From: a virus
Reading direction: 5' to 3' (one strand)
IMG/VR virus record: IMGVR_UViG_3300017598_001140
Coordinates: 15,531-79,530 of that record
DNA length: 64,000 bases
In this document: piece by piece, positions 3 through 45,269 of the stretch
Position numbering within the stretch: position 1 is the stretch's first letter
Layout: each line of letters begins with the position of its first letter
Translations under genes and position numbers: made by a program
The notes under the pieces: model-generated
Databases searched by the model: none
Told to the model about the DNA's origin: nothing
Seen by the model: only the letters and a program-made list of their open reading frames with translations

Positions 3-1046
3 GAAGAGGCGGAGGAAGGTACGCCGGTCGACAAGCTTGCCAACGAAGTGATTCATAGGCGGATTTATTCTGGCCGTTCACCGTATGGCTTACCGCGTTA
101 CATTGGAAATTTGCTTTCGATTTTTGGTGATAGGGCGGCGGAAGAAATTAATTTCATAACTTTTAAAAACAACAATATTCCTTCAATGGTGATAACCGTC
201 AGCAACGGGCAATTGACCGATCCGACCATCGACCGCATAAAGGAGTTTGTAGAATCTCAAATTCAGGGCTCTGATAACTACAGCAAATTTTTGATATTGG
301 AAGCCGAGGGAGTTGAAGAGGGCGAAGACGGTTCGCAAGTGAAAGTTGAAGTGAAGCCATTGGTGTCGGAGCAGCACAAAGACGCATTGTTTCAACAGTA
401 CTCAAAAAACAATCAGGACAAGATACGGCGCCTGTGGAGGTTGCCGCCGATTTTCGTGGGTCGTTCAGACGACTATACCAGGGCTACAGCGGAGAGCAGT
501 AGGCGATTGGCGGACGAGCAAATTTTTTCTCCTGAAAGAGATGAGTTTGACGCATTGATGAACAGGGTAATTTTTCCGGAGATGGGAATTCTTTACCACA
601 AGTTCAAGTCGAATAGCCCTAACACAACAGACAACACGCAATTGGTGAAAATTTTGGCGAGCGCTGAGAAGACAGGCGGCATGAACCCGAAGATTGGCCG
701 CATGATTTTGGAAGATGTCTTGAACGCCGAGTTACCGGGGTTTCCGGATGATTTCGATCCGGATGTACCGTTCAGTTTGACGATGGCCGAAGCTGTGAAA
801 AACGAGGCAGACCCAACGGAGCCGGGGCAACAGGTCACGGCATTGAAAAATTTTGGCACTGCGTTTGGTATTGGAGAGGACGAAGAGGAATTAGTTGAAG
901 CGGAGTGCACGGAGTGCGGCAACGAGGAGTTTGTTTTGAAGTCGGACAGCACTGGAGATCCTGTTGTCGACCATTTGGTTGCATTGAAAAAGAACGTTGA
1001 AAAAAAGTGGAGAACGGCCGTGCTTGAGAACAGCGAAGAAGACTAA
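3..1046 (+). CDS. Phage portal protein (PBSX/HK97-like), 5'-truncated
   Basis: Frame is open from the window edge. Motifs YGLPRYIG, TFKNNNIPSMVITV and RLPPIFVGRSDDYTRATAE are typical of PBSX-family portals. First gene of the head module. Confidence 0.88.
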   Translation, partial: EEAEEGTPVDKLANEVIHRRIYSGRSPYGLPRYIGNLLSIFGDRAAEEINFITFKNNNIPSMVITVSNGQLTDPTIDRIKEFVESQIQGSDNYSKFLILEAEGVEEGEDGSQVKVEVKPLVSEQHKDALFQQYSKNNQDKIRRLWRLPPIFVGRSDDYTRATAESSRRLADEQIFSPERDEFDALMNRVIFPEMGILYHKFKSNSPNTTDNTQLVKILASAEKTGGMNPKIGRMILEDVLNAELPGFPDDFDPDVPFSLTMAEAVKNEADPTEPGQQVTALKNFGTAFGIGEDEEELVEAECTECGNEEFVLKSDSTGDPVVDHLVALKKNVEKKWRTAVLENSEED

Positions 1047-1048
1047 AA

Positions 1049-3133
1049 ATGTGCTTAGACACCATTCATCTTGGCAGGGTCGCGGCTGACGCTCTATTGG
1101 CCAAGGCTCTAATGATTTCCGAAGTCGCCCAGATGTCTCGCGCCGAAGTTCGCATGCGAGAGTTTTTGATTGGCTCTTGGAACAAGCGAAAAGCCAAGGC
1201 CGAAAAACGCGCTGTTGAATTGGCGGAGAAGCTAAAAAGTCCAAGCGAAATAACAAAAGAGATCGATAAAATAATGGAGGGGTGGGCTGGCGAAGCTTCA
1301 GTGGTGGTTGAAGACGAGATGGATTTGATTTTTCGTCTTGGATTGAACATTGGTTACAAAAAAGCAACGCGGCAAACGAAAGCTGATTTGAATTATGTTT
1401 TGCCGAAAACAAACGACGTTGATGTGGAGAAAGCGGGTAAGAAAAAAGTTGCTGAGATTTTACCAAGCTTCACAATCGCGGACGAAAGAGCTATTGATGC
1501 TCTAAAAAAACACCAAGTGTTTTGGATTGGTGAGCATTACAAAAAAAACGTTTCAAAAACAATAGGGAAAAGAGTCAAGCAAACGATGCTCGAAGCTGGC
1601 GAGAGTCCGCTTAAAGCCGGAAAGCTTATGCGCGTGAAGGTTAGAGATGCGCTTACTCACGTAAAGGTTCCCGGCGGTTTTAATGGAACTAATTTGCAAT
1701 ATTTTGAAGGCGTGAGCGCGAACGCTGCGACAGTTGCAAGGGTCAACGGCCAGTTGAGATCCTTTGCTTCTATTGGAATTAGAAGCTATAGGATTTCTGC
1801 CGTTAATGACAGGAGAACTTGTGACCGCTGTTCGCATATGGACGGGAAGGTTTTTCAAACGTCGCAAGGGCTTTCGCAAATGAGTTCTGTATTGGATGCG
1901 AAAACGCCAAACGCGGTGAAAGCCGCGCATCCGTGGCCCAACTCTAAAGAGCTGAAAGCTATCTCCTCAAAGGCCGGGCCGCAATCAGGTAAAGCAGGCG
2001 TTGCAGATGCAAAGGCGTTGTCGTCTGCCGGATTGGCCATGCCGCCGTATCATTTTAAGTGTCGGTGCACTGTCGATATATCGGACGATATTAGGTCGTA
2101 CGATCAGCTTTTGCCGATGTCGGTTCCTGCGCCTAAGAAACCTCCGTCAGCGGCGTTCAAACCGAAGCCGAAACCGAAGCCGAAAAAGAAGCCATTGGTG
2201 CCAGAAAAAATAAGTGCTTCGGAGCTTGCAAAAGAGAAGCAGAGAATCAGCGATTTAGAAAGCGCGAAGTATGTTGAAAGCCATGCTTTGGGCGTGGGAG
2301 TGAATGACGCTCACCTTGTGACTTTTAAAGCAAAAACAGGAGAAGAAATAAAAGGCATTTACAAGTCGGCTGCTTCTGAATACGAAAATATCAGGCCCGG
2401 ATTGAAAACGGGTACTTATTACAAGCGCGAGGTGGCTTTGTACGAATTGGATAAAGCGCTAGGAGGAGCGAAGGTTGTTCCGCCAACGGTCGTTCGAGAT
2501 ATAAAAAAATTAGGAGGGAAAGGCAGTCTTCAATTTTTTGAAAAAGATGCCAAAATGATAGACCATTTTGGAGAAGATGACGTGGCTGCTTTTCTTAAAG
2601 CGAAAGGCGCAGCAGATCCGACTTTGAGAAAAACTTTTTTGCTCGATATTATCAGTGGCAATGACGACAGGCATAGCCAGAACATAATGTTTAAAATGAT
2701 AAAGGGCGGTAAAGGAACAAAGCGGATTGGAAAAGCGGTTGCGATTGATAATGGTTTGACGTTTCCGAGAGGTCATCCGATTCGCTTTATGTTTCCGGGC
2801 GATGTGTATGTTTCGACCGGAGATTACACAACTAAATTATTGGCATTGGATAAAATCAGCCACGCACAAGTGAAGAAATTGGACTTGAAAAAAGTGGCTG
2901 CGATGCTGAAGAAAAACGGGGTTGAACGTCATCCGATTAAGCAAGCTCTTGTACGCATAAGGGCTTTGCAAAAAGATCCAAAAGCAATCGCCAATATAAA
3001 AACGCAATACCACTTAGAACCCGATCAAAAAGTGGAGATGTTTTTTGAAAAGAGTGTCGATACTCCGTACCGGCTTGTTGGGAATAAAGACCATGATAAA
3101 ATTTTGAAAATTGTAGCGGAAATTTTTGATTAA
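1049..3133 (+). CDS. MuF/SPP1 gp7-like minor head protein with C-terminal PI3/PI4-kinase/HipA-like domain
   Basis: Follows the portal. MuF motifs DRRTCDRCSHMDGKVF and PPYHFKCRC, a Pro/Lys linker, then kinase motifs GIYK, KREVALYELD, VPPTVVR, GSLQFF, DIISGNDDRHSQN, AIDNGLTF. Confidence 0.85.
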   Translation: MCLDTIHLGRVAADALLAKALMISEVAQMSRAEVRMREFLIGSWNKRKAKAEKRAVELAEKLKSPSEITKEIDKIMEGWAGEASVVVEDEMDLIFRLGLNIGYKKATRQTKADLNYVLPKTNDVDVEKAGKKKVAEILPSFTIADERAIDALKKHQVFWIGEHYKKNVSKTIGKRVKQTMLEAGESPLKAGKLMRVKVRDALTHVKVPGGFNGTNLQYFEGVSANAATVARVNGQLRSFASIGIRSYRISAVNDRRTCDRCSHMDGKVFQTSQGLSQMSSVLDAKTPNAVKAAHPWPNSKELKAISSKAGPQSGKAGVADAKALSSAGLAMPPYHFKCRCTVDISDDIRSYDQLLPMSVPAPKKPPSAAFKPKPKPKPKKKPLVPEKISASELAKEKQRISDLESAKYVESHALGVGVNDAHLVTFKAKTGEEIKGIYKSAASEYENIRPGLKTGTYYKREVALYELDKALGGAKVVPPTVVRDIKKLGGKGSLQFFEKDAKMIDHFGEDDVAAFLKAKGAADPTLRKTFLLDIISGNDDRHSQNIMFKMIKGGKGTKRIGKAVAIDNGLTFPRGHPIRFMFPGDVYVSTGDYTTKLLALDKISHAQVKKLDLKKVAAMLKKNGVERHPIKQALVRIRALQKDPKAIANIKTQYHLEPDQKVEMFFEKSVDTPYRLVGNKDHDKILKIVAEIFD

Positions 3134-3171
3134 AAATCACCACGTCGGCTGCAAATCTAGTCAGGTTTAAT

Positions 3172-3468
3172 ATGGACATAAAAATAGTAAAATACGATTC
3201 GGAAACCGAAGAGCTAAAATTGCTGGCGGTATTTCGTTTGCGGAAGAAAAAAGTCAAAGCAGAATGGTACGGGAAAAGCGATTCCCTGAAGCACAACATA
3301 GAGAGGAACGGGGTGGCGACAGGCAACGGTCTTTTCTTCATGAAAGACGGAAAAGATTTCATGGACAATTTGCTTTTTGCGTACGCGCAAAGCAGTTTTG
3401 TATCTGCTGTTGAAATAAAAAAAGACCACAAGCCGAAATTGAAAACCAAATCCAAAAAAGACGATTGA
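3172..3468 (+). CDS. Small hypothetical protein, candidate immunity/partner of the MuF-kinase
   Basis: 98-aa ORF 38 bp after the MuF-kinase, in the position immunity genes occupy in MuF toxin loci. Function inferred from position only. Confidence 0.55.
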   Translation: MDIKIVKYDSETEELKLLAVFRLRKKKVKAEWYGKSDSLKHNIERNGVATGNGLFFMKDGKDFMDNLLFAYAQSSFVSAVEIKKDHKPKLKTKSKKDD

Positions 3469-3618
3469 CGAGGCTCGGCGCTCGTATGTGGCTTTCATTG
3501 GTTGCTATTTTCATAGCTTCTGAATTATCCTAGTATAAAAAAAATCCAGTATAACTTACGTTTTATTTTGCTTTTTTCACGTTTCGCGTTAGGCTTGCGT
3601 TGATACGGCATTGGAAGC

Positions 3619-4053
3619 GTGGAGATTATTTTGGAAACAGAAATTTGTGGGCAAAAAGAAGAATTCAGTATCTTTGTTCCCATAGCAAAAGCAAACAAAG
3701 AAGAGCACACCGTGACAGGCGTTGTGCTTCAACCAGAAGTAACAGACGCTCAGGGCGATATTATGTCGGCCAATGTCATCAAACAGGCCGCGCACGATTT
3801 TCTCTCAAAGTACAATAAAAAAACAGAGCTTGGCTTCATGCACAAAAGTTTTAAGCGGCGTTTCGAGCTGCTTGAATCTTACGTTGCGCCAATGGATTTT
3901 GTTTTGAAAAGTGCTGTCATAAAAGCGGGTTCATGGATTGTGACCGTCAGGGTAAAAGAGACGAAAGTTTGGAAGATGATCAAGGACGGAAACATAACGG
4001 GGTTTTCGATTGGTGGGAAAGCAAAAGTTGTCATGGTGGAAGCTAATGACTAA
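3619..4053 (+). CDS. XkdF-like prohead serine protease
   Basis: GVVLQPEVTDAQGD, AAHDF, MH, ESYVAP, GSW, WKMIKDGNITGFSIGG. Confidence 0.88.
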   Translation: MEIILETEICGQKEEFSIFVPIAKANKEEHTVTGVVLQPEVTDAQGDIMSANVIKQAAHDFLSKYNKKTELGFMHKSFKRRFELLESYVAPMDFVLKSAVIKAGSWIVTVRVKETKVWKMIKDGNITGFSIGGKAKVVMVEAND

Positions 4054-4966
4054 TAAAACTAAAAGGCGTTTTGTGGCGCTTGCAGTCGACGAACTTTCGC
4101 TGGTGGATACGCCAGCTAACGAAAAAGAATTTGCCGTTGTCAAGCGGCTACAAACGGAGGAAGAAATGGCAATCGAAAAAGATACCAAAGTAGAGAAAGG
4201 CTCTGCCGAGGAAACCGACGAAAAAAGCATTGAGAAAAAAGCCGTTGGCGACGGTGTTGAGAAGGTAGAAACAGAGGTTCCGGATACCAACGACGAAGCT
4301 GTCGAAAAAGCGATGGGGAAAGTCGTCGAAATGGTTGAAGGGATTGTCAAAAAATCCGAGAAAAAGAAGGAAGAAAAAGCCGAGGACGAGGACGAAGCCG
4401 AAGCCGAAGAAGAAGGCGGCGGAAAGAAGAAAGCGAAAGCGGAAAAGAAAGCGACTCCGCGAGAAGTTTTTGAAGAGCAGATGAAGAAAAACGGCGTGAA
4501 AGATGACGCGCTGAAAACTGCGCTTGAAGCCTTCGACGATTCGGCTGGCGTGGAGAAATCCGAAAAGCCCGAAGAAGAGGTTGAAAAGAGGAAGGACGAC
4601 GAGGTTCTTGAGGCGCTTGAAGCTTCCATTGGAAAAGCCAAGAGATTCACGCCCGGCCGCATGGACACTTTGAAAAACGCCATTGGAACTTTGCAAAAAC
4701 TTCTCGGCGAATTGACGCCTGCGGAAAAAGCAGTGGAAGAGGCCACAGAGGGAGCGCTTGAAGGCGGTTTAGGCTCGGCGGTTGCGAAGGCTCTCAAAGA
4801 ATTCAACGTCAAACTCGACGGCGTGGTAGAGACTCAGAAAAATGTCGGCGAGAGAGTCAAGGAAATAGAAGAGGCGAGGAATCCGTCAGCGTCATTGGAA
4901 GAGGATGGCGAAACAGATACGGACGTGGTTGAAACAGAAAAAAGTCTTTGGAAGGGTGTTATCTAA
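4046..4966 (+). CDS. Capsid scaffolding protein with N-terminal ELSLVDxPAN protease-fold segment
   Basis: ATG 4046 overlaps the end of the protease gene. Glu/Lys-rich low-complexity body, C-terminal KSLWKGVI. Lies between protease and capsid genes. Confidence 0.75.
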   Translation: MTNKTKRRFVALAVDELSLVDTPANEKEFAVVKRLQTEEEMAIEKDTKVEKGSAEETDEKSIEKKAVGDGVEKVETEVPDTNDEAVEKAMGKVVEMVEGIVKKSEKKKEEKAEDEDEAEAEEEGGGKKKAKAEKKATPREVFEEQMKKNGVKDDALKTALEAFDDSAGVEKSEKPEEEVEKRKDDEVLEALEASIGKAKRFTPGRMDTLKNAIGTLQKLLGELTPAEKAVEEATEGALEGGLGSAVAKALKEFNVKLDGVVETQKNVGERVKEIEEARNPSASLEEDGETDTDVVETEKSLWKGVI

Positions 4967-5016
4967 AAAAGGCCGCAAAAACAGGCCATAAGCCAAACGT
5001 TATACAGGAGGAAGAA

Positions 5017-6219
5017 ATGGCTCAGATACCAAACGAAGAATTGGTCCAGAAAGCGGTCATCACAGCAGATGCATTGGCCGCAAGTGGAAAGCTAAACACT
5101 GCGCAATCAGACAAGTTTATCGATTATGTAGTCGATGAAAGTGTTCTGAAAAACAACGCGCGAGTGGTTCGCTTCAGGAATGAAGATCTCGACATCGATA
5201 AAATCGGGATTGGAACCAGGGCAGCCGTGCCGAAATCCGAAGCAGTTGATCCGGGTGTGCGTCGCGGAGTCAACACTTCAAAGATCACGCTGACACCAAA
5301 AGAGATCATGGTGCCGTTCGAGATTGGTGACACTTTCCGCGAAGTCAATCTCGAAGGTGAGAGCGTGGAAGATCACATCATCCAGATGTTCGCCAAGCAG
5401 CTTTCAAACGACCTCGAAGATCTCTATATCAACGGCAACCTATTGGGGCCGGGCGTATTGGAGTCCGAGCTTCTCGACGGCGGTTCAAGCTCTCTGTATG
5501 TCAAGGATTCTTACTTGGCATTGCAGGACGGTTGGAACCAAGCGGCTGAGAGCGGAAACGTGGTTGATGCGGAAGGCGCGAACATTGGTCTGAGCGTTTT
5601 CAATAAAGGCTTGCTTGCAATGCCTACCAAGTTTCGCAGGAATCGCGGAGCGCTCCGGTTTTTCACAAGTCCCGACCTTGCACAGATGTACATGGAGAAG
5701 CTGAGCACTCGTGCAACAGGTGCCGGTGACGAGGCTGCGCGTGGTCGTGGTCTGATGCCTTTCGGCGTGCCAATCACAGAGGTTCCGCTTCTGCAATATC
5801 TGCCGCCGGTTACAGAGCATGTGGTTCTCGACGACGTGACTCCTGTTTCATTGCTCAACAAGAATGTTTCCAATGTCGTTGTGACTCCGATCACATTGGG
5901 TGGCGCGCCAACCGCTGCTTATCCAAACGGCGGATCGGGTGGTTATATTCTCGACGCAGCCAACGGAACGCTTCTGTCCTACGATAGTGGCTCCGGTCTT
6001 GACACCGAAACCGTGAAGGTCACGTACTCGGCGAGTCCGCAAATTCTTTTGACCCATATGAACAACTTCATCATTGGGATTGGAAGAGACATCCGGATCG
6101 AAAAAGACAGAGACATCTTCAAGGGCGTGAATCAGTATGCGATCACGGCGAAAGTGTCTGTCAATTTTGAAGAAGACAGCGCGATTGTCAAAATTCGCAA
6201 TGTCGGAACTGGCGTCTGA
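5017..6219 (+). CDS. Major capsid protein (HK97 fold, XkdG/P2-like)
   Basis: AGGAGG RBS. Motifs GKLNTAQSDKFIDYVVDES, FAKQLSNDLEDLYINGN, MPTKFR, IGRDIRIEKDRDIFKG. Follows the scaffold. Confidence 0.9.
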   Translation: MAQIPNEELVQKAVITADALAASGKLNTAQSDKFIDYVVDESVLKNNARVVRFRNEDLDIDKIGIGTRAAVPKSEAVDPGVRRGVNTSKITLTPKEIMVPFEIGDTFREVNLEGESVEDHIIQMFAKQLSNDLEDLYINGNLLGPGVLESELLDGGSSSLYVKDSYLALQDGWNQAAESGNVVDAEGANIGLSVFNKGLLAMPTKFRRNRGALRFFTSPDLAQMYMEKLSTRATGAGDEAARGRGLMPFGVPITEVPLLQYLPPVTEHVVLDDVTPVSLLNKNVSNVVVTPITLGGAPTAAYPNGGSGGYILDAANGTLLSYDSGSGLDTETVKVTYSASPQILLTHMNNFIIGIGRDIRIEKDRDIFKGVNQYAITAKVSVNFEEDSAIVKIRNVGTGV

Positions 6220-6224
6220 TAAAA

Positions 6225-6267
6225 GCGTGTTGACCGGCTGATCGTGAGCATTGGCCGGTCGGTGTGC
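6225..6267 (+). terminator. 18-bp RNA hairpin (rich in G-U pairs) after the major capsid gene; mRNA stabiliser or attenuator
   Basis: GCGTGTTGACCGGCTGAT pairs with ATTGGCCGGTCGGTGTGC around a 7-nt loop. No U-tract follows. Confidence 0.5.
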
Positions 6268-6294
6268 GCAGCCATTGCTTGGAGGTACTCAAAG

Positions 6295-6687
6295 ATGGCA
6301 AAAGCAGAAATAAAATTGATGAAGGGTCGGTCTTTGACCGTTCGAGGCAGGAAGCTACTTCCCGGCTACCCTCAAACAATAACAGACGCCGCAGATATTC
6401 AATATTTCAAAGGTGTGAGCACTGTTCAAGTTACTGTATTGGAAGACAGCCCAAAGAAAGTCAGTGCGCCTGCGCCAGAGATTGAAAAGAAAGCGTCTGT
6501 TGAACCCAAACAAGAACCTAAAAACATGGAACCCGCAAAAAAGAGATTCAGTGAAGGGACGTTGAAAGACATGAACAAAACTGATTTGATTTCTGTGGCG
6601 ACCGGAATGGGTCTTTACGTGGATAAAAGTGATAAGAAAAAAGTAATTATCACGGAGATCCTAGAGGCTCAGGACGCGGAGGAATGA
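6295..6687 (+). CDS. Head-associated protein with C-terminal Rho-N/HeH-like helical domain
   Basis: GGAGG RBS. C-terminal LKDMNKTDLISVATGMGL..DKKKVIITEIL. Such genes commonly follow the capsid gene. Confidence 0.6.
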   Translation: MAKAEIKLMKGRSLTVRGRKLLPGYPQTITDAADIQYFKGVSTVQVTVLEDSPKKVSAPAPEIEKKASVEPKQEPKNMEPAKKRFSEGTLKDMNKTDLISVATGMGLYVDKSDKKKVIITEILEAQDAEE

Positions 6688-6688
6688 C

Positions 6689-7054
6689 ATGCCGATAGTT
6701 CAGATGCCAAGAGGTGTGTCGCCTGTTCAAGTTGAGTTTGTTTTCAAGGGTAAAGACGCTGCCAAAGAAGAAGCTTCTTTCGAGCGCTCCGTGAAAGGAG
6801 CGATACATTTTAGGCCCGGTTGCACAAAGGTAATCACAAACGACGAGCTTGCTTATATCGAGAAGAATAAGAAAAAGCTTGCTGTTAAATTGCATGTAGT
6901 GCCGGGGACAAAAAATGTGTCGGTTAAAAAGGCCGAAAAAAAGGTCGAAGAAAAACCGGAAAAAGAAGAGCGGGAAACAGCGCGATCCGAGAAGCCAACA
7001 ACAGGCGACAAAGGCGATAGGAATAAGAAGGGTAAGAAGTCGTCAGGCGGATAA
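6689..7054 (+). CDS. Hypothetical protein (head module)
   Basis: ORF starts 1 bp after the upstream stop; Lys/Glu-rich tail. Confidence 0.55.
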   Translation: MPIVQMPRGVSPVQVEFVFKGKDAAKEEASFERSVKGAIHFRPGCTKVITNDELAYIEKNKKKLAVKLHVVPGTKNVSVKKAEKKVEEKPEKEERETARSEKPTTGDKGDRNKKGKKSSGG

Positions 7055-7106
7055 AACGCATGGCAGATAAATCCTTGCTAGGCTCTTAGCTCTATGAGGT
7101 AACGCC

Positions 7107-7562
7107 ATGATTAAACTTCACACCAACGACGGTCAAACAAATCGAATTGACCTCGGAGACGAACAGCAAGCTAGAGAATGGTTGAAACGCTTGAAAGATG
7201 CAGCTTTCCAGAAGACGATCACAGGTGTCTCTGTGCTGCAAAAATGCGGTGGCCATTTTCGTTGTCCGGCTTGTAGTCGATCATCAAAATTAATTTGCTC
7301 GCATTGCGGCTCTTCGGCTAACCAAGTGGAGTGCGGAACGGGCGTTCAATTTTCGCTGTCCAGACCTATTGGAATGGATGGTGTTTTCTATCTTGTCGAG
7401 AATATCGAGCCGGATAAAAAAACCAAAACAAAAGGCGGAGAAAAAGTTACTTGTTTTGCTGGCGAAAACAGGTTGACTTTAATGGTTCATCGGTGTCAAT
7501 CGGCTGCGAAAATTTCTTTGTCGAAAACAGGGAAGCAAAGGTTTAATCCCAACGAGGTTTAA
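7107..7562 (+). CDS. Hypothetical protein with double CxxC zinc ribbon
   Basis: GAGG RBS; CPAC...CSHC. Confidence 0.55.
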   Translation: MIKLHTNDGQTNRIDLGDEQQAREWLKRLKDAAFQKTITGVSVLQKCGGHFRCPACSRSSKLICSHCGSSANQVECGTGVQFSLSRPIGMDGVFYLVENIEPDKKTKTKGGEKVTCFAGENRLTLMVHRCQSAAKISLSKTGKQRFNPNEV

Positions 7563-7910
7563 ATGGCGCGGAGTCTTCAAAAATTAAAGCAGATTGATAC
7601 GCCGTTAGGGTACGACGATCAGAGGACCGGAGCCGAAGTTTCAAACACAGAAACAACGGCCGACGATTTGGAAAAAGTTTTCCACGGCATGCTGAGCCAG
7701 TTGAAGCGAATTATTCACGGTGAAGACGCCGGGAATTGGTTCGATAATATCAACTCTGTTTTTGGTGAAGACGTTTCTTTAAAAGCTCTGTTGGCAAAGA
7801 TTGGAACCGGCGGTGGTGGTGGTATTGATGAAGATAAAATCTTGGTAGAGCGAACAACAGGATTGGTTATGATTCTCCGCGCTACCGGAAATGTATTGGT
7901 GAGAAGATGA
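7563..7910 (+). CDS. Hypothetical virion protein (possible fibre anchor/adaptor)
   Basis: Abuts the upstream gene and overlaps the giant fibre start (ATGA). Poly-Gly hinge. Confidence 0.5.
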   Translation: MARSLQKLKQIDTPLGYDDQRTGAEVSNTETTADDLEKVFHGMLSQLKRIIHGEDAGNWFDNINSVFGEDVSLKALLAKIGTGGGGGIDEDKILVERTTGLVMILRATGNVLVRR

Positions 7911-10900
7911 GCTATCATGATGAGGTGCCTTTAGGGTCTGTTCATCAGCCGTGCAATTGGGAATACGCAGACGCGGCCGCAAGAACCGGCGCGAGCGGCT
8001 TTGTGTCTGGCGACATTGGAAAGTTCGCCCGGCAATTGGATGACAATTCTGTTTGGATGCTAACTGCTGTTACTCCTACTTGGGGACAAATAAACGCCGA
8101 TAATGCGCCACACGCAAGCGACCACGAAAATGGCGGTGCAGATGAAATAAATGTAGCGGGTTTAAGCGGAGTCTTGGCGGACGATCAAAATCCTGCGGCT
8201 CATGCATCGGATCACGAAAACGGAGGTGGCGACGAAGTGAGCGTGGCCGGGCTTTCAGGATTGCTTGCAGACGACCAAAATCCAACAAGCCACGGAGCTG
8301 CGGCGCATAGCGGAAGCATTGGTTCTCATTCGCAAATAACATCGGTGGGTGAAGATGATCACCACGCTAAAACCCACGCCACGACTCACGAAAATGGCGG
8401 AGCGGACGAAATAAGCGTAGCAGGTTTAAGTGGACTTTTAGCAGACGATCAAAATCCAGCAAGCCACGCAAGCGAACACGAAAACGGCGGAGTCGATGAG
8501 ATAAGTGTGGCAGGTTTAAGCGGAGAGCTTGCGGACGACCAACCACCGAAAGATCATGGCGCTGCGGAGCATAGTGGGAGCATTGGAACGCACTCTCAAA
8601 TAACATCGGTGGGTGAAGACGATCACCACGCTAAAACACACGCCACCACTCACCAAAACGGTGGTGCTGATGAAATTAATGTGGCTGGTTTAAGCGGTGA
8701 ATTAGCAGACGATCAAAATCCTGTGGCTCATGCATCGGAGCACGAGGACGGCGGCGCGGATGAAGTCAACGTGGCAGGTTTAAGTGGAGAACTTGCGGAC
8801 GATCAGCCACCAAAAGACCACGGCGCAGCCGCGCACAGCGGAAGCATAGGGACACATTCTCAGATAACATCGGTCGGAGAAGACGATCACCATGCTAAAA
8901 CCCACGCCACGACTCACCAAAATGGCGGAGCAGATGAGATAAGCGTAGCAGGTTTAAGCGGAGAACTTGCGGACGACCAACCGCCAAAAAATCACGCATC
9001 GGATCACTCTGACGGCGGCGGCGATGAAATCACAGTCGAAGATTTAGCCACCAGTGGAGGCTCAGGAACTGTCCCGATTTCGCAAGGGGATGGAAGCCTT
9101 GCGATGGGAGCGCCGACGCCTACAAGCCACGCTACGACCCACCAAAACGGTGGAGCTGACGAAATAAGTGTAGCTGGATTGAGCGGAGTTTTAGCAGACG
9201 ATCAAAATCCAACAGCGCACGCATCGGAACACGAAAACGGTGGTGTTGATGAGATGAGCGTGGCCGGTTTAAGTGGAGAATTGGCAGACGATCAACCGCC
9301 GAAAAGCCACGGAGCTGCGGAGCATAGCGGAAGCATTGGAACGCACTCTCAAATAACATCGGTGGGAGCGGACGACCACCACAACCAATCGCATGGAGCA
9401 AGCGATCACAGTGGCGACATTGGTGCGGCGTCTCAAGTGACAAATGATTCGAGCGTTTCTGGCGCGAAAGTAAAAGAAGCACTTGAAACATTGGAGACGA
9501 CAATCACGGCATTGGAAAACGGAAGGATACACCGCGACCCAGTTATCAATATAGTGGATTGCACGCAAGCGCCGCCGTCAGAAGTTTCTGGCGATAGGTT
9601 TATCATAGACAACACCATTGGAACGGTCCATGCGGATTACGACGGTGCCAGCAAAAATGACATAGTAGACTTCAACGGCTCCACATGGGATGCATTTAGC
9701 CCGGTAGAAGGCTGGCTTGCTTATGTAGATTCGCAAAATCAAGATGCGTTGTTTATCGATGATGGAACACCGCAATGGCAATTGAGGCCGGTTGCGGTTA
9801 CTGACCACGCCGATTTGTCTAACGTAACGTCAGACCAGCACCACGCTAAAGACCACGCCGCCACTCACCAAAACGGCGGAGCAGATGAAATAAGTGTGGC
9901 TGGTTTAAGCGGACTTTTAGCAGACGATCAAAATCCGGTTTCCCATGCGAGTGAGCACGAAAACGGAGGCGGAGACGAGATCAGTGTGGCGGGGTTGAAC
10001 GGGCTATTGGCGGACGACCAGAACCCAACAAGCCACGGCGCTGCCGCCCATAGTGGTTCTATTGGAACGCACTCTCAAATAACAAGCGTCGGTGAAGATG
10101 ACCATCACGCTAAAACCCACGCTACCACTCACCAAAACGGTGGAGCAGACGAAATTAGTGTAGCCGGATTGAGCGGAGAATTGGCGGATGATCAACCGCC
10201 GAAAAACCACGCGGCGGATCATTCCGATGGCGGTGGCGATGAAGTAACGGTCGAAGATTTAGCCACTAGCGGAGGGTCTGGAACCGTCCCGGTTTCACAA
10301 GGAGACGGAAGCTTGTCGATGGGAGCGCCTGCGCCTGCAACCCACGCCACGACTCACGAAAACGGTGGAGCGGATGAAGTTAGTGTAGCTGGATTGAGCG
10401 GACTTTTAGCAGACGATCAAAATCCAACGGCTCATGCGAGCGAACACGAAAACGGCGGAGTCGATGAGGTTAGCGTGGCTGGCCTAAGCGGAGAATTGGC
10501 GGACGATCAACCGCCTAAAGCACATGGTGCCGCCGCTCACAGTGGGAGTATTGGAACCCACTCTCAAATAACATCGGTTGGTGAAGACGATCACCACGCT
10601 AAAACCCACGCTACCACTCATGAAAACGGTGGCGGCGACGAAATAAGTGTAGCAGGTTTAAGCGGCTTGTTGGCGGACGATCAAAACCCAACAGCTCACG
10701 CATCGGATCACCAAAGCGGCGGCGGTGATTCAATTAAATTGGATGACCTCGCAACACCGGACGACAATACTGATTTGGACGCTACCACTGGGTTACATGG
10801 ATTGCTTCCGAAACTCGGCGGAGGTACAACAAATTTTTTGAGAGCGGACGGAACGTGGTCGGCTCCGGGCGGTGCTCCTAGCGCGCACGCTTCAAGCCAC

Positions 10901-13900
10901 GAGAACGGCGGCGGCGATGAGATAAGTGTAGCTGGTTTAAGTGGGGAATTGGCGGACGACCAGCCGCCGAAAAGTCACGGAGCTGCTGCGCACAGTGGGA
11001 GCATTGGAACGCACTCTCAAATAACATCGGTTGGAGAAGACGATCACCACGCTAAAACCCACGCCACCACTCACCAAAACGGTGGTGCTGACGAAATAAG
11101 TGTGGCTGGTTTAAGCGGACTTTTAGCAGACGATCAAAATCCGACAAGTCACGCCTCGGAGCACGAAAACACAGGCGGTGACGAAATAAGTGTGGCCGGT
11201 TTAAGCGGACTTTTAGCAGACGATCAAAATCCGGTTTCTCATGCATCGGATCACCAAAGCGGCGGTGGTGATTCAATCAAATTAGACGACCTCGCAACTC
11301 CAGACGACAACACCGATCTCGACGCTACCACTGGGTTACACGGTTTGCTGCCGAAGCTCGGCGGAGGTACAACAAATTTTTTGAGAGCGGACGGAACGTG
11401 GAGCGCGCCGCCTACTCTTGGAGGTCACGCATCGGATCACGAAAACGGTGGAGCTGACGAAATAAGTGTGGCTGGTTTAAGCGGATTATTAGCAGACGAT
11501 CAGAACCCGACAGCGCACGCATCGGAGCACGAAAACGCTGGAGTTGATGAGATAAGTGTAGCTGGTTTAAGTGGGGAATTGGCAGACGATCAACCGCCGA
11601 AATCACATGGAGCAGCAGCGCACAGCGGGAGCATTGGAACGCACTCTCAAATAACAAGTGTCGGCGAAGATGATCACCACGCTAAAACCCACGCCACGAC
11701 TCACCAAAACGGTGGAGCGGATGAGATAAGTGTAGCAGGTTTAAGCGGACTATTGGCGGACGATCAAAATCCAGCAAGCCATGCATCGGATCACGAGAAC
11801 GGCGGCGGAGACGAAATAAGCGTGGCTGGTTTAAGCGGAGAGCTGGCAGACGACCAGCCACCAAAGGCGCATGCGTCGGCTCACTCTGACGGCGGTGGTG
11901 ACGAAATCACGGTCGAAAATTTAGCCACCAGTGGAGGGTCTGGAACCGTCCCGGTTTCGCAAGGCGACGGAAGTTTGGCAATGGGAGCACCAGCGCCAGC
12001 GACACACGCCACAGCTCACGAAAACGGCGGTGGTGACGAAATAAGTGTAGCAGGTTTAAGTGGATTGTTAGCAGACGATCAAAATCCAACGGCTCATGCA
12101 TCGGAGCACGAAAACGGTGGAGCCGACGAGATAAGTGTAGCGGGATTGAGTGGAGAATTGGCGGACGACCAGCCGCCGAAATCGCATGGGGCGGCGGCAC
12201 ATAGCGGGAGCATTGGAACGCACTCTCAAATAACATCTCTCGGAGTCGACGACCACCACGCGCAATTGCACGCCGCTGCGCATCAAAACGGCGGCGGAGA
12301 CGAAATAAGCGTGGCTGGTTTAAGCGGATTATTGGCGGACGATCAAAATCCAACAAGTCACGCATCGGATCACCAAAGCGGTGGTGGCGATTCAATTAAA
12401 TTGGACGACCTCGCAACACCAGACGACAACACGGATCTCGACGCTACCACTGGGTTACACGGTTTGCTTCCGAAGCTTGGTGGAGGCACGACAAATTTTT
12501 TAAGAGCAGACGGAACGTGGGCCGCGCCGGGTGGCGGAGGTTCTCATGCTTCAACCCACGAGAACGGCGGCGGAGACGAAATAAGTGTGGCTGGTTTAAG
12601 TGGTTTGCTTGCTGACGATCAAAATCCTACCGCCCATTCGAGCGACCATGAAGACGGTGGGGCTGACGAAATTAATGTGGCAGGTTTAAGCGGAGAGCTT
12701 GCGGACGATCAGCCCCCTAAAGACCATGCAGCAAACCATACGGATGGAACGGACGATGTTCAAGACGGCACAAATTCGCAAAAGGGTTTGGTAACTGCCG
12801 CTCAAATAACTTTGTTGGAAAGGTTGGAAACGTATCAAGCCGACGTGAACAAAACGGGGTTTTTAAATTATACAGATTCCGTGCGCAGTTTTGTGAATGG
12901 AAGCATGACTTTTTCAATTCAACCGGCGGTGACTAGTTACGAATATTATATTGATGGGGTTAAGTACACAAAGACCGGAACGGATAATGTTGTCATTGAT
13001 GACACTGAAGGATTGCATTACATTTATTTTGATGGGGCCACGTTAAAAAAGACAACAACTTTTAGCGTTGATTTAGTCAAGATTTACGCCTTTGTTGCGG
13101 TCATTTATTGGGACGCAACAAATAACGTACAAATTTATTTTGGTGACGAACGCCATACTCCAATCATGGATTGGAAAACGCATATGCGTTTGCACTTTGT
13201 TGTTGGTGGTTCAATTTCTGAAGGTGGTGGGTTGGGTGGTATTTTAGCCAACGACAGTGGGGGCGATGATGAAGACGCAGAATTTTCGATTGAAGCTACA
13301 GAATTTTGGGATGAAGATATAAATATTTCCCACGGTGCAAAAAGTTCAACGGCGAATATTGGAGTGTATTCCAGAAGTGGCGTTGATGCATCGAAAATAT
13401 GGCGTGTGGATGAAACGGCCAGCTTTGGCGTTATCACTACCGGGACAGGCCGCGCTGCTTGGAATGAATTAACTGGTGGAAGTTGGCAACAAACAGAAGT
13501 TTCTAATAATGATTTTGTTTTAGCACATGTTTTTACCTATAACGACCCGGACAGAAAGTTTGGAGTTTTTCAAGGTCAAAACACATATCCAACGGCTAGC
13601 CAAGCACGCGCGGCGGCTGAAGATTTAACAGAAATCAATGCGCTTATCACAGAGGGGTTGCCATTACCTGAATGGAAGTTTTTAGGGACGTTAATTTATC
13701 AGACTTCCAATGGTTATGGTAATGCCGTTAAATCAAGGATTCGCTCAACGTCCGATGGCGGTGATTATGTTGATTTGAGAGGCGCTTTGATTTCAAGAAC
13801 CGGCACAGGCGTTGCCGGGACATTGGACATCGTAAATCTAACCACGTCAGAACTGGGAACGGCTTATTGGTTGGCACCGGACGGAACCGGCGCAACCGAA

Positions 13901-43406: not shown

Positions 43407-43770
43407 AAAAAGCAACCAAGAATATTGGTGCTATTCGTTCGGAGAATATCAGGAACTTGGCTTGGTATTGGTCGACTACGAAGACCTTTGGAAATACGCG
43501 CTTTTCATCGAAGAAAAAAACGCATCGTTGAAGAGAGATTTCGTGTCACAGCAGCAACGCGCTCAGAATTGGAGAGACGCCGCCGAGACGCAAAAAAAGC
43601 GCGGTGATTTTCTTGGAAAGATGTGGGACGAAGAGCACAAGTTTCGTTTGCAGCTCGAAGCGAAAAATAAGTGGCATTGGGTTCCGTGGGCGCTTGTAGT
43701 GGTCGAATCTGTAGTGTTTGCGGGCATAGGTGCCTACGCTTTTGCTACCGCTCCAGACCCGTCAAAATAA
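43252..43770 (+). CDS. Spanin-like partner (signal peptide, coiled coil, C-terminal TM), overlapping the previous gene
   Basis: KLKTLVLLMTLLLPFMALSQ signal; C-terminal WALVVVESVVFAGIGAYAF. Start codon uncertain. Confidence 0.5.
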   Translation: MLKKQKANAIKLKTLVLLMTLLLPFMALSQTQMKTLEKPPSLRKPPVGQKVEKSNQEYWCYSFGEYQELGLVLVDYEDLWKYALFIEEKNASLKRDFVSQQQRAQNWRDAAETQKKRGDFLGKMWDEEHKFRLQLEAKNKWHWVPWALVVVESVVFAGIGAYAFATAPDPSK

Positions 43771-43808
43771 AAATCACCTTCAGAATAGTTTTTCCAGTAT
43801 TATAAAGC

Positions 43809-45269
43809 ATGGCTGTAAAAATTTTTATCGACAATCAATTTGTGCGAATAAGGAGCGCTACGCCTTCGGTTATTCGCAAGCTTGAGAAGGTTACGAGTTA
43901 TTATGTTCAAGGCTATTTTTTTTCTCCGGCTTTCCGAAGCAAAAGGTGGGACGGGAAAGAGCACCTTCTAAAGTATTCTAAAACAAAGGGCTACAGAGCG
44001 CCGGTCGGTTTGCTTGTTGATATTTTGAAGGAGTTGAAGCGAATTGAGATTGGCTACAAGCTTGTGGACCAAAGGCGAAAGCCGAACAAATTTTTTAAGT
44101 TTGGTTGGAACGAAGATTTTGTTCTGAGAGATTATCAAAACGATTGCGTTGAAGTGATCTCAGGAAAGCCGCTGCCGGGCAGGGGAATAGTTCAAACGCC
44201 AATTAGATCCGGAAAGACTTTGATAGCTGCGGCGATAATCAAAAAGCTTGGTGTCTCTACTCTTTTCGTGGTGCCTTCCAGAATGTTGCTTTATCAGACG
44301 AAAGAAGTTTTTGAAAACGTGCTTTGTGAGAACGTTGGAATTATTGGCGACGGGCATTGGAACGTCAAACCGATCACCGTGGCGACCGCTCAGAGCCTTC
44401 ACAGAGCGCACGGAGGTTGGCGCAAGGGTAAGGACAAGAAAAGGTTCAAACTGCCCACAGAACCGCGTTTCAAGGCATTGGCCAAAGAGATAGACTTGGC
44501 TTTCTTCGATGAGGCGCATCATTTGACAGCAGACGGGTGGCACGAGGTCATGCAAAGCTTCAATTCTTTTTACAAGATTGGATTGAGCGCGACTGTTTTT
44601 TTGGAGCACGAGAAGCAGTGTGAAAAGGGTGTGATTTGGTTGAAGGCGTGTTGCGGCGATGTTCAGTTTTCCGTCACTCCTACGGAGCTGATTGAAAAGG
44701 GGTTTTTGATGAGGCCCAAAATACAGATTTACAAAGTGCTTGAACCGAGTCACGTTTTCGAGAGAAGGTGGAGCGCCGAGCTAAAAAATTTGTGCATTAA
44801 TTGCAACCCCGTCAGGAACGCTTTGATCTGCGAGCTTGTCGAAAAACATGTGGGAAATAAAAAGAAGGTTTTGGTGATTTCAAATCGCTTGAACCAAATC
44901 GAAATATTGGACGAACTTTTTCACGATGCGGGCCTGATGTATGCGGTCATTGTTGGCAAAACTTCAACAGAGAAAAGGAAAGAAATTCTTTCGGATTACA
45001 AAGAAGGAATTTATGACGTTTTGTTAGGGACCGTTTTCGGAGAAGGTGTGGATCTGCCAAGCGTCGAGTGCGTGATAAACGCAGAAGGCGGAAAAGACGT
45101 GAAAGCAACGATCCAAAGAATGAGAAACTTGACGCCGAGTGAAGGAAAAAAAGAGGCGATTTATATCGACTTTGCAGACTTGATGAATCCTTATTTTTCA
45201 GGTCACAGCTTGGAGCGTTTAAAAGTGTACAGAGCGGAAGAGGGCTTCGGGGTCAAGCTGCTCAATTAA
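43809..45269 (+). CDS. Superfamily 2 DEAH helicase (UvsW-like)
   Basis: LRDYQ, PIRSGKT, DEAHH, GLSAT, EGVDLP, QRMR. Confidence 0.9.
   Translation: MAVKIFIDNQFVRIRSATPSVIRKLEKVTSYYVQGYFFSPAFRSKRWDGKEHLLKYSKTKGYRAPVGLLVDILKELKRIEIGYKLVDQRRKPNKFFKFGWNEDFVLRDYQNDCVEVISGKPLPGRGIVQTPIRSGKTLIAAAIIKKLGVSTLFVVPSRMLLYQTKEVFENVLCENVGIIGDGHWNVKPITVATAQSLHRAHGGWRKGKDKKRFKLPTEPRFKALAKEIDLAFFDEAHHLTADGWHEVMQSFNSFYKIGLSATVFLEHEKQCEKGVIWLKACCGDVQFSVTPTELIEKGFLMRPKIQIYKVLEPSHVFERRWSAELKNLCINCNPVRNALICELVEKHVGNKKKVLVISNRLNQIEILDELFHDAGLMYAVIVGKTSTEKRKEILSDYKEGIYDVLLGTVFGEGVDLPSVECVINAEGGKDVKATIQRMRNLTPSEGKKEAIYIDFADLMNPYFSGHSLERLKVYRAEEGFGVKLLN

Follow-up and report, generated by a model that had tools for sequence, protein, structure and literature searches.

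Within a 64,000-nucleotide window from an uncultured tailed phage of ~100 kb, a single plus-strand ORF with an ATG start (1049..3133) encodes a MuF head protein fused to a domain that is predicted, on the basis of structural modelling, to be a catalytically competent kinase. The kinase gene and a small gene located directly downstream (3172..3468, plus strand) form a two-gene module. By analogy with known MuF-fused enzymes, the MuF-kinase is probably a polymorphic effector that is delivered by the virion.

Architecture and genomic setting of the MuF-kinase

The 694-residue fusion protein (P0001) consists of a MuF/SPP1 gp7-like minor head (head morphogenesis) domain (residues 1-345, 1049..2083), a Pro/Lys-rich linker (residues 346-395, 2084..2233) and an atypical, type II PI4K-like kinase domain of ~300 residues (residues 396-694, 2234..3130), all on the plus strand. 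An identical protein is also on record from an 87.7-kb contig. By curated cut-offs, P0001 can be assigned to the MuF/SPP1 gp7 family: PF04233 (Phage_Mu_F) matches residues 240-342 with 32.8 bits (cut-off 29.6), and TIGR01641 scores 43.1 bits (cut-off 39.65). The N-terminal part also matches PHROG minor head protein families, and tblastn searches match it to MuF genes of Vibrio, Rhizobium and Stenotrophomonas phages. Two Cys pairs are found in the MuF domain (C258/C261 and C338/C340), and the motif PPYHFKCRC corresponds to residues 332-340 (nt 2042-2068). A V-x-K-A motif at approximately residues 126-129 is conserved and may be a processing site. A preliminary description of this DNA had placed the MuF domain up to PPYHFKCRC, followed by a Pro/Lys linker, and these matches support that layout. 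The linker holds KPKPKPKPKKKP (residues 371-382), and is gap-rich and variable in an alignment of P0001 homologues, with relatives having a Pro-rich linker instead or inserts of ~240 residues (loci L007 and L008).

Each of the kinase motifs named previously for the ORF could be located by position, upholding the claim of a single MuF-kinase reading frame. These are the Gly loop LGVGVN (residues 414-419), GIYK (residues 436-439, with K439 at nt 2363-2365), KREVA (residues 459-463, containing E461), the catalytic loop DRHSQN (D540-N545, nt 2666-2683) and DNG (D567-G569, nt 2747-2755). While the kinase domain itself was correctly recognised, the start proposed at nt 2260 is not retained, as the structured part opens with an N-terminal helix at approximately residue 390 (~nt 2215) in the AF2 model.

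The gene was previously described as a kinase fused to a MuF head protein, and it is located between portal and prohead protease genes. Upstream, the C-terminal 347 residues of a portal protein (phrog_12, E 2.4e-30) are encoded by a plus-strand gene that is truncated by the window start (3..1046) and ends at 1046, immediately preceding the MuF start at 1049. This portal is 67-70% identical to those encoded upstream of MuF-kinase genes in loci L001-L008. The protease and capsid genes follow, both on the plus strand: a prohead (head maturation) protease-like ORF (3619..4053; phrog_3017, E 9e-36), syntenic in L001-L012, and a major capsid protein-like ORF (4948..6219; phrog_1623, E 4e-74) that matches annotated major capsid proteins of Streptomyces phages (tblastn). 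Portal, MuF-kinase, small gene, protease, scaffold and capsid protein follow one another here, and do so likewise in L001-L008 and in L012.

Fold and active site of the kinase domain

The AF2 model of the kinase domain (pLDDT 95, pTM 0.93) has a bilobal kinase fold in which the Lys, the catalytic DRHxxN loop and the DxG metal-binding motif are all present. Comparison of the model with known structures using VIA-align identified PI4K2B (Z 20.6) and PI4K2A (Z 20.3) as the closest, with 252-256 residues aligned, and the top Foldseek matches are likewise PI4K2A/B. The check by structure search and modelling that had been proposed earlier therefore confirms the kinase fold. A profile of the kinase family matches PI4K2A (4hnd) with an E-value of 7e-18, covering the whole domain. 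More distant similarities are observed to Fam20 (Z about 15), CtkA (Z 13.6), HipT/HipA (Z about 11-12), and VPS34, PI3K-gamma, mTOR, ATM and PI4KIIIbeta (Z 10-12). These models place the kinase in the PI3/PI4K-HipA-Fam20 superfamily, with the type II PI 4-kinases as its nearest members, and support the view that the C-terminal domain of P0001 adopts a kinase fold and retains all of its active-site residues. Of the initial label "PI3/PI4-kinase/HipA-like", the PI4K side is retained in its type II form, in contrast to the HipA-like part. HipA as the closest family was rejected, given a Z-score of about 12 versus about 20 for PI4KII and no match in P0001 to the Pfam families HipA_C or HipA_2 at E <= 1. 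Only 5/156 kinase relatives match HipA_2 or HipA_C, and these only weakly.

The Pfam family PI3_PI4_kinase (PF00454) scores 26.5 bits on P0001, slightly below the cut-off of 27.1, and is matched by all 11 close relatives as well as by 132 of 156 family representatives (E <= 1e-3; best 3e-20). Conservation of individual residues was judged over alignments of 59-78 homologues. D533, D540, R541, H542, N545 and D567 are invariant across 78 sequences, and K439, E461 and G569 are near-invariant. In view of the family matches and this conservation, the motifs are not chance occurrences. The actinobacterial, PI3/PI4K-like SCO1664 family (TIGR03843) also resembles the domain weakly over 164 residues (E 2.6e-9). 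With 36.8 bits, far under the cut-off of 172.4, P0001 nevertheless falls outside that family.

A swappable C-terminal slot in related phages

A survey of related phages was anchored on the capsid protein, and yielded 177 IMG/VR relatives, 80 of which were examined, providing 60 MuF genes. No C-terminal cargo is present in 35 of these, 11 carry the kinase, and the remaining 14 have another C-terminal extension, including ADP-ribosyltransferase (ART; L052, L056, L070 and L102), GNAT (L092) and unknown domains. The MuF C-terminal slot is thus polymorphic among sister phages, which answers the earlier suggestion to survey MuF homologues for swapped C-termini. It also indicates that the kinase domain is dispensable for assembly and represents a swappable cargo, because the majority of MuF proteins are short and others have ART or GNAT in its place.

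This bears on whether the kinase might act in the producing cell or prohead, on the scaffold, portal or capsid or by regulating assembly or late host physiology, as opposed to being injected. The gene does reside in the late head operon, and MuF/gp7 proteins are morphogenetic according to their Pfam and PHROG names. However, a role of this kind sits poorly with the empty or differently filled slots of the sister MuF proteins, and with the occurrence of the same kinase as a standalone protein or on non-MuF carriers. We therefore consider it very unlikely.

MuF-fused enzymes have been predicted to be packaged in the head and injected (PMC3482391, PMC5512222, PMC9503650), and the kinase slot fits this established concept. 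The earlier interpretation of the fusion as a virion-delivered kinase effector is thereby partly supported. Similarities with the MuF polymorphic toxins and effectors (Zhang et al. 2012, PMC3482391; Jamet 2017; Iyer 2017; Apk/IapK, PMC12226406) include a conserved MuF N-terminus in the head module, a variable C-terminal enzyme (in this case within one phage clade), and a small ORF directly downstream that co-varies with the cargo. The difference lies in the nature of the cargo, here a type II PI4K-like kinase. The word "kinase" appears nowhere in the text of Jamet 2017 (PMC5576092), while Iyer et al. 2017 deal with another group of Ser/Thr/Tyr kinases, which lack the C-lobe, and with P-loop kinases of the MuF-zeta-toxin type (PMC5512222). 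A literature search for MuF or phage proteins with a PI3_PI4_kinase or type II PI4K domain returned nothing relevant, in line with the earlier remark that no characterised MuF-kinase was known.

A small partner gene accompanies the kinase

The small gene, which the preliminary description did not take into account, encodes a 98-residue protein (P0157) with a conserved core of approximately residues 1-82 and a Lys-rich tail. Among 41 IMG/VR loci anchored on the kinase, homologues directly adjoin the kinase gene in 31, whatever the N-terminus of the kinase, and no partner is seen in the other 10. The partner is usually downstream, with many kinase/partner gene pairs overlapping by 4 bp, and is once fused to the kinase C-terminus (L020, ORF 5566-7353). 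Among the surveyed MuF genes, it is found beside 9/11 that bear the kinase versus 1/49 others (Fisher p 3.6e-8, with loci taken as independent despite shared ancestry and some being near-duplicates).

Little could be gleaned from sequence comparison of P0157, with no Pfam family and no PDB sequence match detected, and a profile search of 5.8 billion proteins returning only 10 small unnamed proteins. The P0157 model (AF2, pLDDT 84.7) had no Foldseek match in the PDB at E <= 1e-3. When compared with 48,161 chains, the top neighbours are HipS and HipA N-subdomain-1, which make up four of the top five at a Z-score of 4.6, under the stated reliability range of the tool. The top structural row in the Atlas is a cluster of HIRAN proteins, with an architecture like HipN. 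The models thus suggest a weak resemblance of the P0157 family to HipS/HipA N-subdomain-1, and by analogy P0157 is a candidate immunity protein, inhibitor or regulator of the kinase.

The arrangement can be compared with HipBST, hipJS, hipIN and HipL (PMC6581861, PMC10627512, PMC9325769, PMC8262856), where a kinase of the same superfamily is similarly combined with a partner of ~80-100 residues. The partner gene adjoins that of the kinase, in most cases on its downstream side and with a 4-bp overlap, or the partner is fused behind the kinase core. Indeed, Hip kinases include both cases in which the kinase gene is followed by a HipS-like gene (hipJS, hipIN) and one in which kinase and HipS-like part are fused (HipL; PMC8262856). 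In addition to the preference of the phage kinase for PI4KII over HipT/HipA in structural comparisons, several features distinguish the phage module. Its Gly-rich loop, ALGVGVNDAHLV, has a Gly motif without Ser or Thr (family consensus GxGxN), so that the autophosphorylated Gly-loop Ser of the Hip kinases is absent; no HipB/HTH gene accompanies the kinase; and the module is located on a head protein, as opposed to in a chromosomal toxin-antitoxin operon. P0157 also lacks detectable sequence similarity to Couple_hipA, with an hhalign probability of 0.2% against an alignment built from 26 genome matches.

Rather than restraining the kinase, the partner could be an obligate subunit or activator that completes it, as N-subdomain-1 does within HipA, and that is packaged along with the kinase or required for its folding or its choice of substrate. 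The natural fusion in L020 equally suits a regulatory or structural subunit, HipA has the equivalent domain in cis, HipL has it after the kinase core (PMC8262856), and the 4-bp overlaps suggest stoichiometric co-translation of kinase and partner. In contrast, HipS is an antitoxin in the only characterised split systems (PMC10627512, PMC9325769), AF2 models the kinase completely and with high confidence without the partner, and the quarter of kinase loci that have no detectable partner are awkward for this reading. We regard an obligate subunit as rather unlikely, and favour an immunity-like partner by analogy with the systems above.

A further possibility is that the pair constitutes a classical MuF polymorphic toxin, with the kinase arresting the growth of non-immune cells and the small gene providing immunity to lysogens or kin. 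The architecture, in which a small ORF follows a MuF protein with a variable C-terminus, is that of Jamet 2017 (PMC5576092), and the MuF Apk toxins have characterised immunity proteins (PMC12226406). However, the Jamet 2017 set consists exclusively of temperate phages (PMC5576092), while no match to Phage_integrase or Resolvase, and hence no lysogeny gene of this type, was found in the 79.5-kb record (77% complete). The "kill the non-lysogen" rationale (Jamet 2017) is not obviously applicable as a consequence. Genomes of the clade are ~100 kb in size with their own replication genes and look virulent, and killing a cell under infection would harm a lytic phage. Taken together, this makes a classical toxin distinctly unlikely. 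That a lytic phage would require an immunity gene at all is a matter of reasoning, not of observation.

Scans for sigma-70 promoters and terminators across ~2900-3700 gave counts no higher than those of shuffled sequences. A promoter-like AAAAATCACC box precedes the small gene (3172) and also the gene at 43809.

Proposed role and substrate of the kinase

We propose that the MuF part carries a few copies of the kinase into the prohead, and that these would exit with the DNA when the next host is infected. Once inside, the kinase would phosphorylate a host target, more likely a protein than phosphatidylinositol, and thereby aid takeover or blunt defence. The partner would bind the kinase and keep it inactive where its activity would hurt the phage, be it in the cell that makes the virions or, following early expression, in the newly infected one. 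The restraining role is proposed by analogy, as immunity proteins follow MuF toxins and HipS restrains HipT. We consider this explanation as a whole, an injected MuF-borne kinase effector with a restraining partner, to be reasonably probable.

A similar strategy is represented by the T4 Alt ADP-ribosyltransferase (PMC5512222, PMC9503650), which is packaged in the head and injected, and modifies the host when phage genes begin to be expressed or even earlier. While fold and chemistry of Alt differ from those of the phage kinase, an ART cargo fills the same MuF slot in sister phages. The T7 protein kinase, on the other hand, is expressed early and not packaged (discussed in PMC5512222 and PMC9503650).

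The similarity to PI4KII raises the question of whether the substrate could be a lipid or small molecule, such as a membrane lipid, cell-envelope precursor, sugar or nucleotide signal. Possible roles would be to aid DNA entry, to remodel the membrane, or to destroy or mimic a defence messenger. The lipid kinases PI4K2A/B are the closest structures by a wide margin (PDB codes 4hnd, 4pla, 4wtv and 9hhm; Z 19-20.6 over ~250 residues with 18-20% identity). The Gly loop, the Lys, the catalytic-loop Asp/Asn and IDNGL are common to both, as is a subsequent FP-x-x-HP segment that, in PI4KII, is membrane-facing. A sugar kinase is found among the Fam20 matches (Z about 15), and a role in cell-wall-precursor modification has been proposed for MuF-fused zeta-toxin kinases (Iyer et al., PMC5512222).

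Other features of the domain depart from PI4KII. Its catalytic loop is DRHSQN, a form shared with PI3K and type III PI4K, where PI4KII has DRGNDN. The palmitoylated, membrane-anchoring CCPCC insert of PI4KII is missing, with no Cys in residues 385-694, and the phage kinase falls about 100 residues short of the PI4K2A range to which it aligns (~96 fewer residues align). Relatives of the kinase occur on contigs binned with Planctomycetota, Myxococcota, Acidobacteriota, Patescibacteria and Chlamydiota, although these stem from a pattern-limited scan of 8 loci only and carry little weight for host range. Most of these phyla are not known to make phosphatidylinositol, which argues against a lipid kinase. 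Likewise, the partner-gene logic parallels that of protein-kinase toxins such as HipT/HipS, and the alternative cargoes in the slot (ART, GNAT) are typically protein modifiers (PMC5512222). A lipid or small-molecule substrate thus appears unlikely, and phosphorylation of a host protein is preferred.

Enzymes injected by phages are prime candidates for takeover or counter-defence functions, because they are active before any phage gene is expressed, and very few have been characterised. The present kinase family is large and recurs on head-packaging carriers; within one phage clade, ADP-ribosyltransferase or GNAT cargo can take its place. The dedicated small partner of the kinase offers an experimental handle, and the two may make up a novel pair of kinase and inhibitor. 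MuF-fused effectors with accompanying immunity genes are a known principle, and the advance would lie in a new class and mechanism of effector within that kind of system.

Size, carriers and distribution of the kinase family

The kinase family comprises 750 representative clusters at E <= 1e-3. An N-terminal MuF domain combined with a C-terminal kinase is found in at least 51 of 156 family representatives, so that the MuF-kinase architecture is common, not rare. Other fusions among the representatives involve portal, ART, PT-HINT and Zeta-toxin domains, and some phage proteins bear the automatic UniProt label "PI3K/PI4K domain-containing". Among the matches seen, the family is the closest relative of the type II PI 4-kinases in the prokaryotic world, which bears on the origin of the eukaryotic family.

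More tentatively, and with a rather modest chance of being correct, members of this large PI4KII-like family may reside in capsids on MuF, portal and polyvalent carriers, be injected and phosphorylate a host protein within seconds of the onset of infection, with a co-evolving HipS-like partner as the off-switch. The partner would shield the producing cell, and its early transcription from the promoter-like site before 3172 would limit the kinase to a short pulse. If true, this would represent a timed, virion-delivered kinase/anti-kinase module. The family would then also be a prokaryotic sister group of the eukaryotic type II PI 4-kinases, and could shed light on how these arose.

A tblastn search of 50,697 phage records with the kinase domain alone gave no match at E <= 0.1, and the matches of the whole protein to cultivated phages are confined to the MuF part. 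Distant candidates in cultivated phages were identified by BFVD structure matches only, and consist of Mycobacterium phage Onyinye, the Gordonia phages GodonK and Sixama, HSTV-2 and HHTV-1. A quick tree of the kinase is at odds with the capsid clade, with L006 pairing with L013 (SH-aLRT 98), for example. Kinase identity is 37-44% irrespective of whether the corresponding capsid protein is ~30% or ~70% identical.

A MuF head protein fused to a kinase within the head module

P0001, the MuF–kinase fusion, was confirmed as a single ATG-started open reading frame of 694 aa (window 1049-3133, + strand), as the preliminary description had it. The motifs by which that description recognised its two halves were all located: PPYHFKCRC at the MuF end (aa 332-340), a KP-repeat linker (aa 371-382) and the kinase motifs LGVGVN (aa 414-419), GIYK (aa 436-439), KREVA (aa 459-463), DRHSQN (aa 540-545) and DNG (aa 567-569). 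Family models support both halves, with Phage_Mu_F scoring 32.8 bits (cut-off 29.6), TIGR01641 (SPP1 gp7 minor capsid) 43.1 (cut-off 39.65) and PI3_PI4_kinase falling slightly below its cut-off (26.5 versus 27.1 bits). The N-terminal part belongs to the minor head and head morphogenesis families of PHROGs.

Every long ORF of the window lies on the + strand. The head module reads portal (3-1046), MuF-kinase (1049-3133), a 98-aa ORF termed P0157 or the partner (3172-3468), prohead protease-like (3619-4053), scaffold-like (4010-4966) and major capsid protein (4948-6219), and is followed by sheath, tape-measure and baseplate genes, which identifies a contractile-tailed phage. No integrase or resolvase was found in the 79.5-kb IMG/VR source record, which is 77% complete according to CheckV and from which the window takes bases 15531-79530. 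A 2,435-aa ORF (7907-15214, +) in the head-to-neck region has a GC content of 0.52-0.55, above its surroundings, and gave short, repeat-like PHROG matches only.

The protease-like ORF encodes just 144 aa before the stop at 4053. The 318-aa ORF at 4010-4966 overlaps it by 44 nt in another frame, and its N-terminus weakly matches the same protease PHROG; protease and scaffold (3619-4966) may be split, or joined via a frameshift. A hydrophobic-x-Lys-Ala motif is repeated near the N-termini of MuF (VEKA, aa 126-129, window 1424-1435, +), the capsid protein (LVQKA, ~5044, +) and the protease (IAKA, ~3685, +). MuF K128 is invariant across 11 relatives, as are capsid protein K35 and A36 across 7. The motif is a possible candidate for a prohead-protease cleavage site, in which case MuF would be processed within the prohead.

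Fold and active site of the kinase domain

A search with aa 385-694 of P0001 against 1.84 billion cluster representatives returned 750 proteins at E ≤ 1e-3, of which 181 reached E ≤ 1e-10, revealing a large and uncharacterised kinase family. The AlphaFold2 model, based on an alignment of 59 homologues, reached a mean pLDDT of 95 and a pTM of 0.93. Human PI4K type II alpha and beta were the top Foldseek matches in the PDB; using VIA-align, PI4K2B and PI4K2A gave Z scores of 20.6 and 20.3 (252-256 residues, rmsd ~3.7-4.1), compared with ~15 for Fam20 kinases, 13.6 for CtkA and ~11-12 for HipT, HipA, CotH, PI4KIII-beta, VPS34, mTOR and ATM. The family profile matches PI4K2A from sequence alone (E 7e-18), over a span covering the Gly loop, Lys, catalytic loop and IDNGL motif and then an FP..HP segment. 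Across 78 homologues, D533, D540, R541, H542, N545 and D567 are invariant and K439, E461, I566 and G569 almost so, a conservation of catalytic residues that supports an active enzyme. The C-terminus of P0001 is thus a genuine and probably active kinase of the PI3/PI4K superfamily, closest to the type II PI 4-kinases. The earlier assignment to a PI3/PI4/HipA-like kinase holds for the kinase fold; HipA itself is more distant than the type II PI 4-kinases.

The domain is not a type II PI4K sensu stricto: it is ~100 residues shorter, contains no Cys and hence no CCPCC palmitoylation insert, and has DRH in its catalytic loop, whereas the type II enzymes possess both the insert and a DRG loop. Neither its sequence nor its best structural match makes it a Hip kinase, and the Gly loop lacks the autophosphorylation Ser found in Hip kinases.

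Carriers of the kinase

Across 156 collected family proteins, the kinase is preceded by a MuF domain in at least 51 and by another long N-terminal region in 56, and stands alone or almost alone in 49. Pfam also identified portal, ADP-ribosyltransferase, PT-HINT, intein and Zeta-toxin domains in some members. Among the BFVD structure matches to the kinase are 'phage head morphogenesis' proteins from uncultured phages, along with large proteins encoded by Mycobacterium phage Onyinye, Gordonia phages GodonK and Sixama, and haloviruses HSTV-2 and HHTV-1. Taken with the MuF, portal and other carriers, these matches establish the kinase as a recurring module on head-associated and polyvalent phage proteins.

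Some MuF-kinase relatives among the IMG/VR loci contain an extra ~240-aa segment, located between MuF and kinase in L007 (5953-8559) and L008 (6001-8676), and after the kinase in L006 (5950-8766, plus 8767-9249) and L012. The partner domain forms the end of a longer ORF in L006, L012 and L008. These layouts look like steps towards polyvalent proteins. One further contig, L023, carries two large kinase-ending genes in tandem (24-3593 and 3847-6756). A partner-family domain comes after each of them, and the second of these domains lies at the beginning of a 515-aa ORF.

A swappable cargo slot and a kinase-partner unit

An alignment of the capsid protein was used to fetch 80 of 177 matching IMG/VR loci (capsid protein 47-75% identical to that of the window), 60 of which contain a MuF gene. 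The variable MuF C-termini anticipated by the preliminary description were indeed observed: 35 of the 60 lack an extension, 14 carry a non-kinase extension of 200-400 aa and 11 the kinase. Ten of the non-kinase extensions were analysed with Pfam, yielding ADP-ribosyltransferase in four and GNAT acetyltransferase in one, with the others left without an assignment. The partner lies beside 9/11 kinase-bearing MuF genes versus 1/49 others (Fisher's exact p = 3.6e-8, uncorrected for relatedness). In close relatives, identity to the window is 66-70% for portal and capsid protein, 44-53% for the MuF domain, 37-44% for the kinase and ~35-40% for the partner; in L009 and L010, the kinase is still 37-39% identical though the capsid protein is only ~30%. 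A quick maximum-likelihood tree with long branches did not recover the kinases of the capsid clade as monophyletic (L006 and L013, for example, pair with SH-aLRT 98). These data together establish the C-terminus of MuF as a slot for swappable cargo, with the kinase and its partner behaving as one unit.

In L001-L005, L007 and L008, loci syntenic with the window, the gene immediately 3' of MuF-kinase is a P0157 homologue. An iterated profile search of 3,139 mechanically called ORFs located the partner family in 31 of 41 kinase-anchored loci (the locus sets include some near-duplicates) and solely beside kinase genes, mostly directly downstream with a frequent 4-bp overlap. It accompanies the kinase on MuF, on other carriers and as a standalone protein (e.g. 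L033, L039, L040); in L020 the two form a single fusion protein with the partner at the C-terminal end. A rival reading of the partner, set against the restraining role that we favour, is an obligate subunit; the pairing of kinase and partner lends itself well to experiment.

In three loci the partner is convergent, directly beside the kinase on the opposite strand (L009:8103-8357, L018:7265-7525 and L035:4810-5340, all -); in both length and offset, the L009 copy matches the co-directional one of its relative L010. L110 is the sole capsid-clade phage with a partner gene (3566-3832) behind a MuF gene (2263-3573) with no detectable kinase, and this partner may be what is left of a kinase cassette that was lost or has diverged.

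A possible likeness of the partner to HipS

The partner family has no Pfam model and no named homologues in a large protein collection. AlphaFold2 predicts a small beta-rich alpha/beta domain (pLDDT 84.7), for which Foldseek returned no significant match. Exhaustive VIA-align against 48,161 PDB representatives ranked Legionella HipS (7vkb_B, from the HipT-HipS complex; PMC9325769) first and E. coli HipS (7ab3_B) second, both with a Z of 4.6, below the reliable range of the tool; HipS and HipA N-subdomain-1 account for four of the five best matches. The ESM Atlas placed a cluster of HIRAN-domain proteins (219 aa) in its top structural row, in agreement with the architecture of HipN, which combines a HipS-like domain with HIRAN (PMC8262856). 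Comparing the partner profile with one of Couple_hipA, aligned from 26 genome hits, produced no signal (probability 0.2%). Because of the weak Z score and this comparison, we treat 'HipS-like' as a context-backed lead rather than a settled homology.

The genomic context of the partner is suggestive: known Hip kinases occur with HipS encoded downstream (hipJS), with a HipS-HIRAN protein encoded downstream (hipIN), or with a HipS-like domain following the kinase core in the same protein (HipL; PMC8262856). In HipBST, HipS is the antitoxin, blocking the kinase via a Trp inserted near the active site (PMC10627512).

Proposed role of the MuF-kinase

MuF has been proposed as a phage-head trafficking domain of polymorphic toxins (PMC3482391), MuF-fused enzymes are predicted to be packaged and injected (PMC5512222; PMC9503650), and a small putative immunity ORF follows 89% of MuF toxin genes (PMC5576092). 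P0001 and its partner fit this established template and differ in cargo type. The concept is already known, and the kinase cargo is what is added here: this kinase type was not described as MuF cargo in the literature that could be searched. The word 'kinase' is absent from Jamet 2017 (PMC5576092), Iyer 2017 describes another kinase group lacking the C-lobe as well as MuF-zeta-toxin fusions (PMC5512222), and the kinases called 'Apk' in MuF toxins are pyrophosphokinases of the RelA/SpoT type (PMC12226406).

The explanation we favour, and consider moderately probable as a whole, is that P0001 would enter the prohead through MuF and leave into the next host, where the kinase would phosphorylate a host target, with the small partner binding and restraining it whenever its activity would hurt the phage. 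A classical competition toxin is the rival suggested by the same template of toxin and immunity ORF, and a kinase acting in assembly alone is the rival suggested by its place on a head protein. As to the target of such a delivered kinase, a lipid or small molecule is the alternative in keeping with the nearest structural neighbours. A protein appears likelier, since the cargoes with which the kinase is exchanged modify proteins and most candidate hosts are not known to make phosphatidylinositol.

Elements flanking the partner gene

A sigma-70 scan near the partner gene yielded nothing over shuffled sequences. A box, AAAAATCACC, occurs ~30-40 nt 5' of both the partner gene (3134-3171) and the gene at 43809 (43768-43808). 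A 'CCAGTATAA'-like element also precedes 43809, and is found again in the 3469-3618 spacer ahead of the protease.
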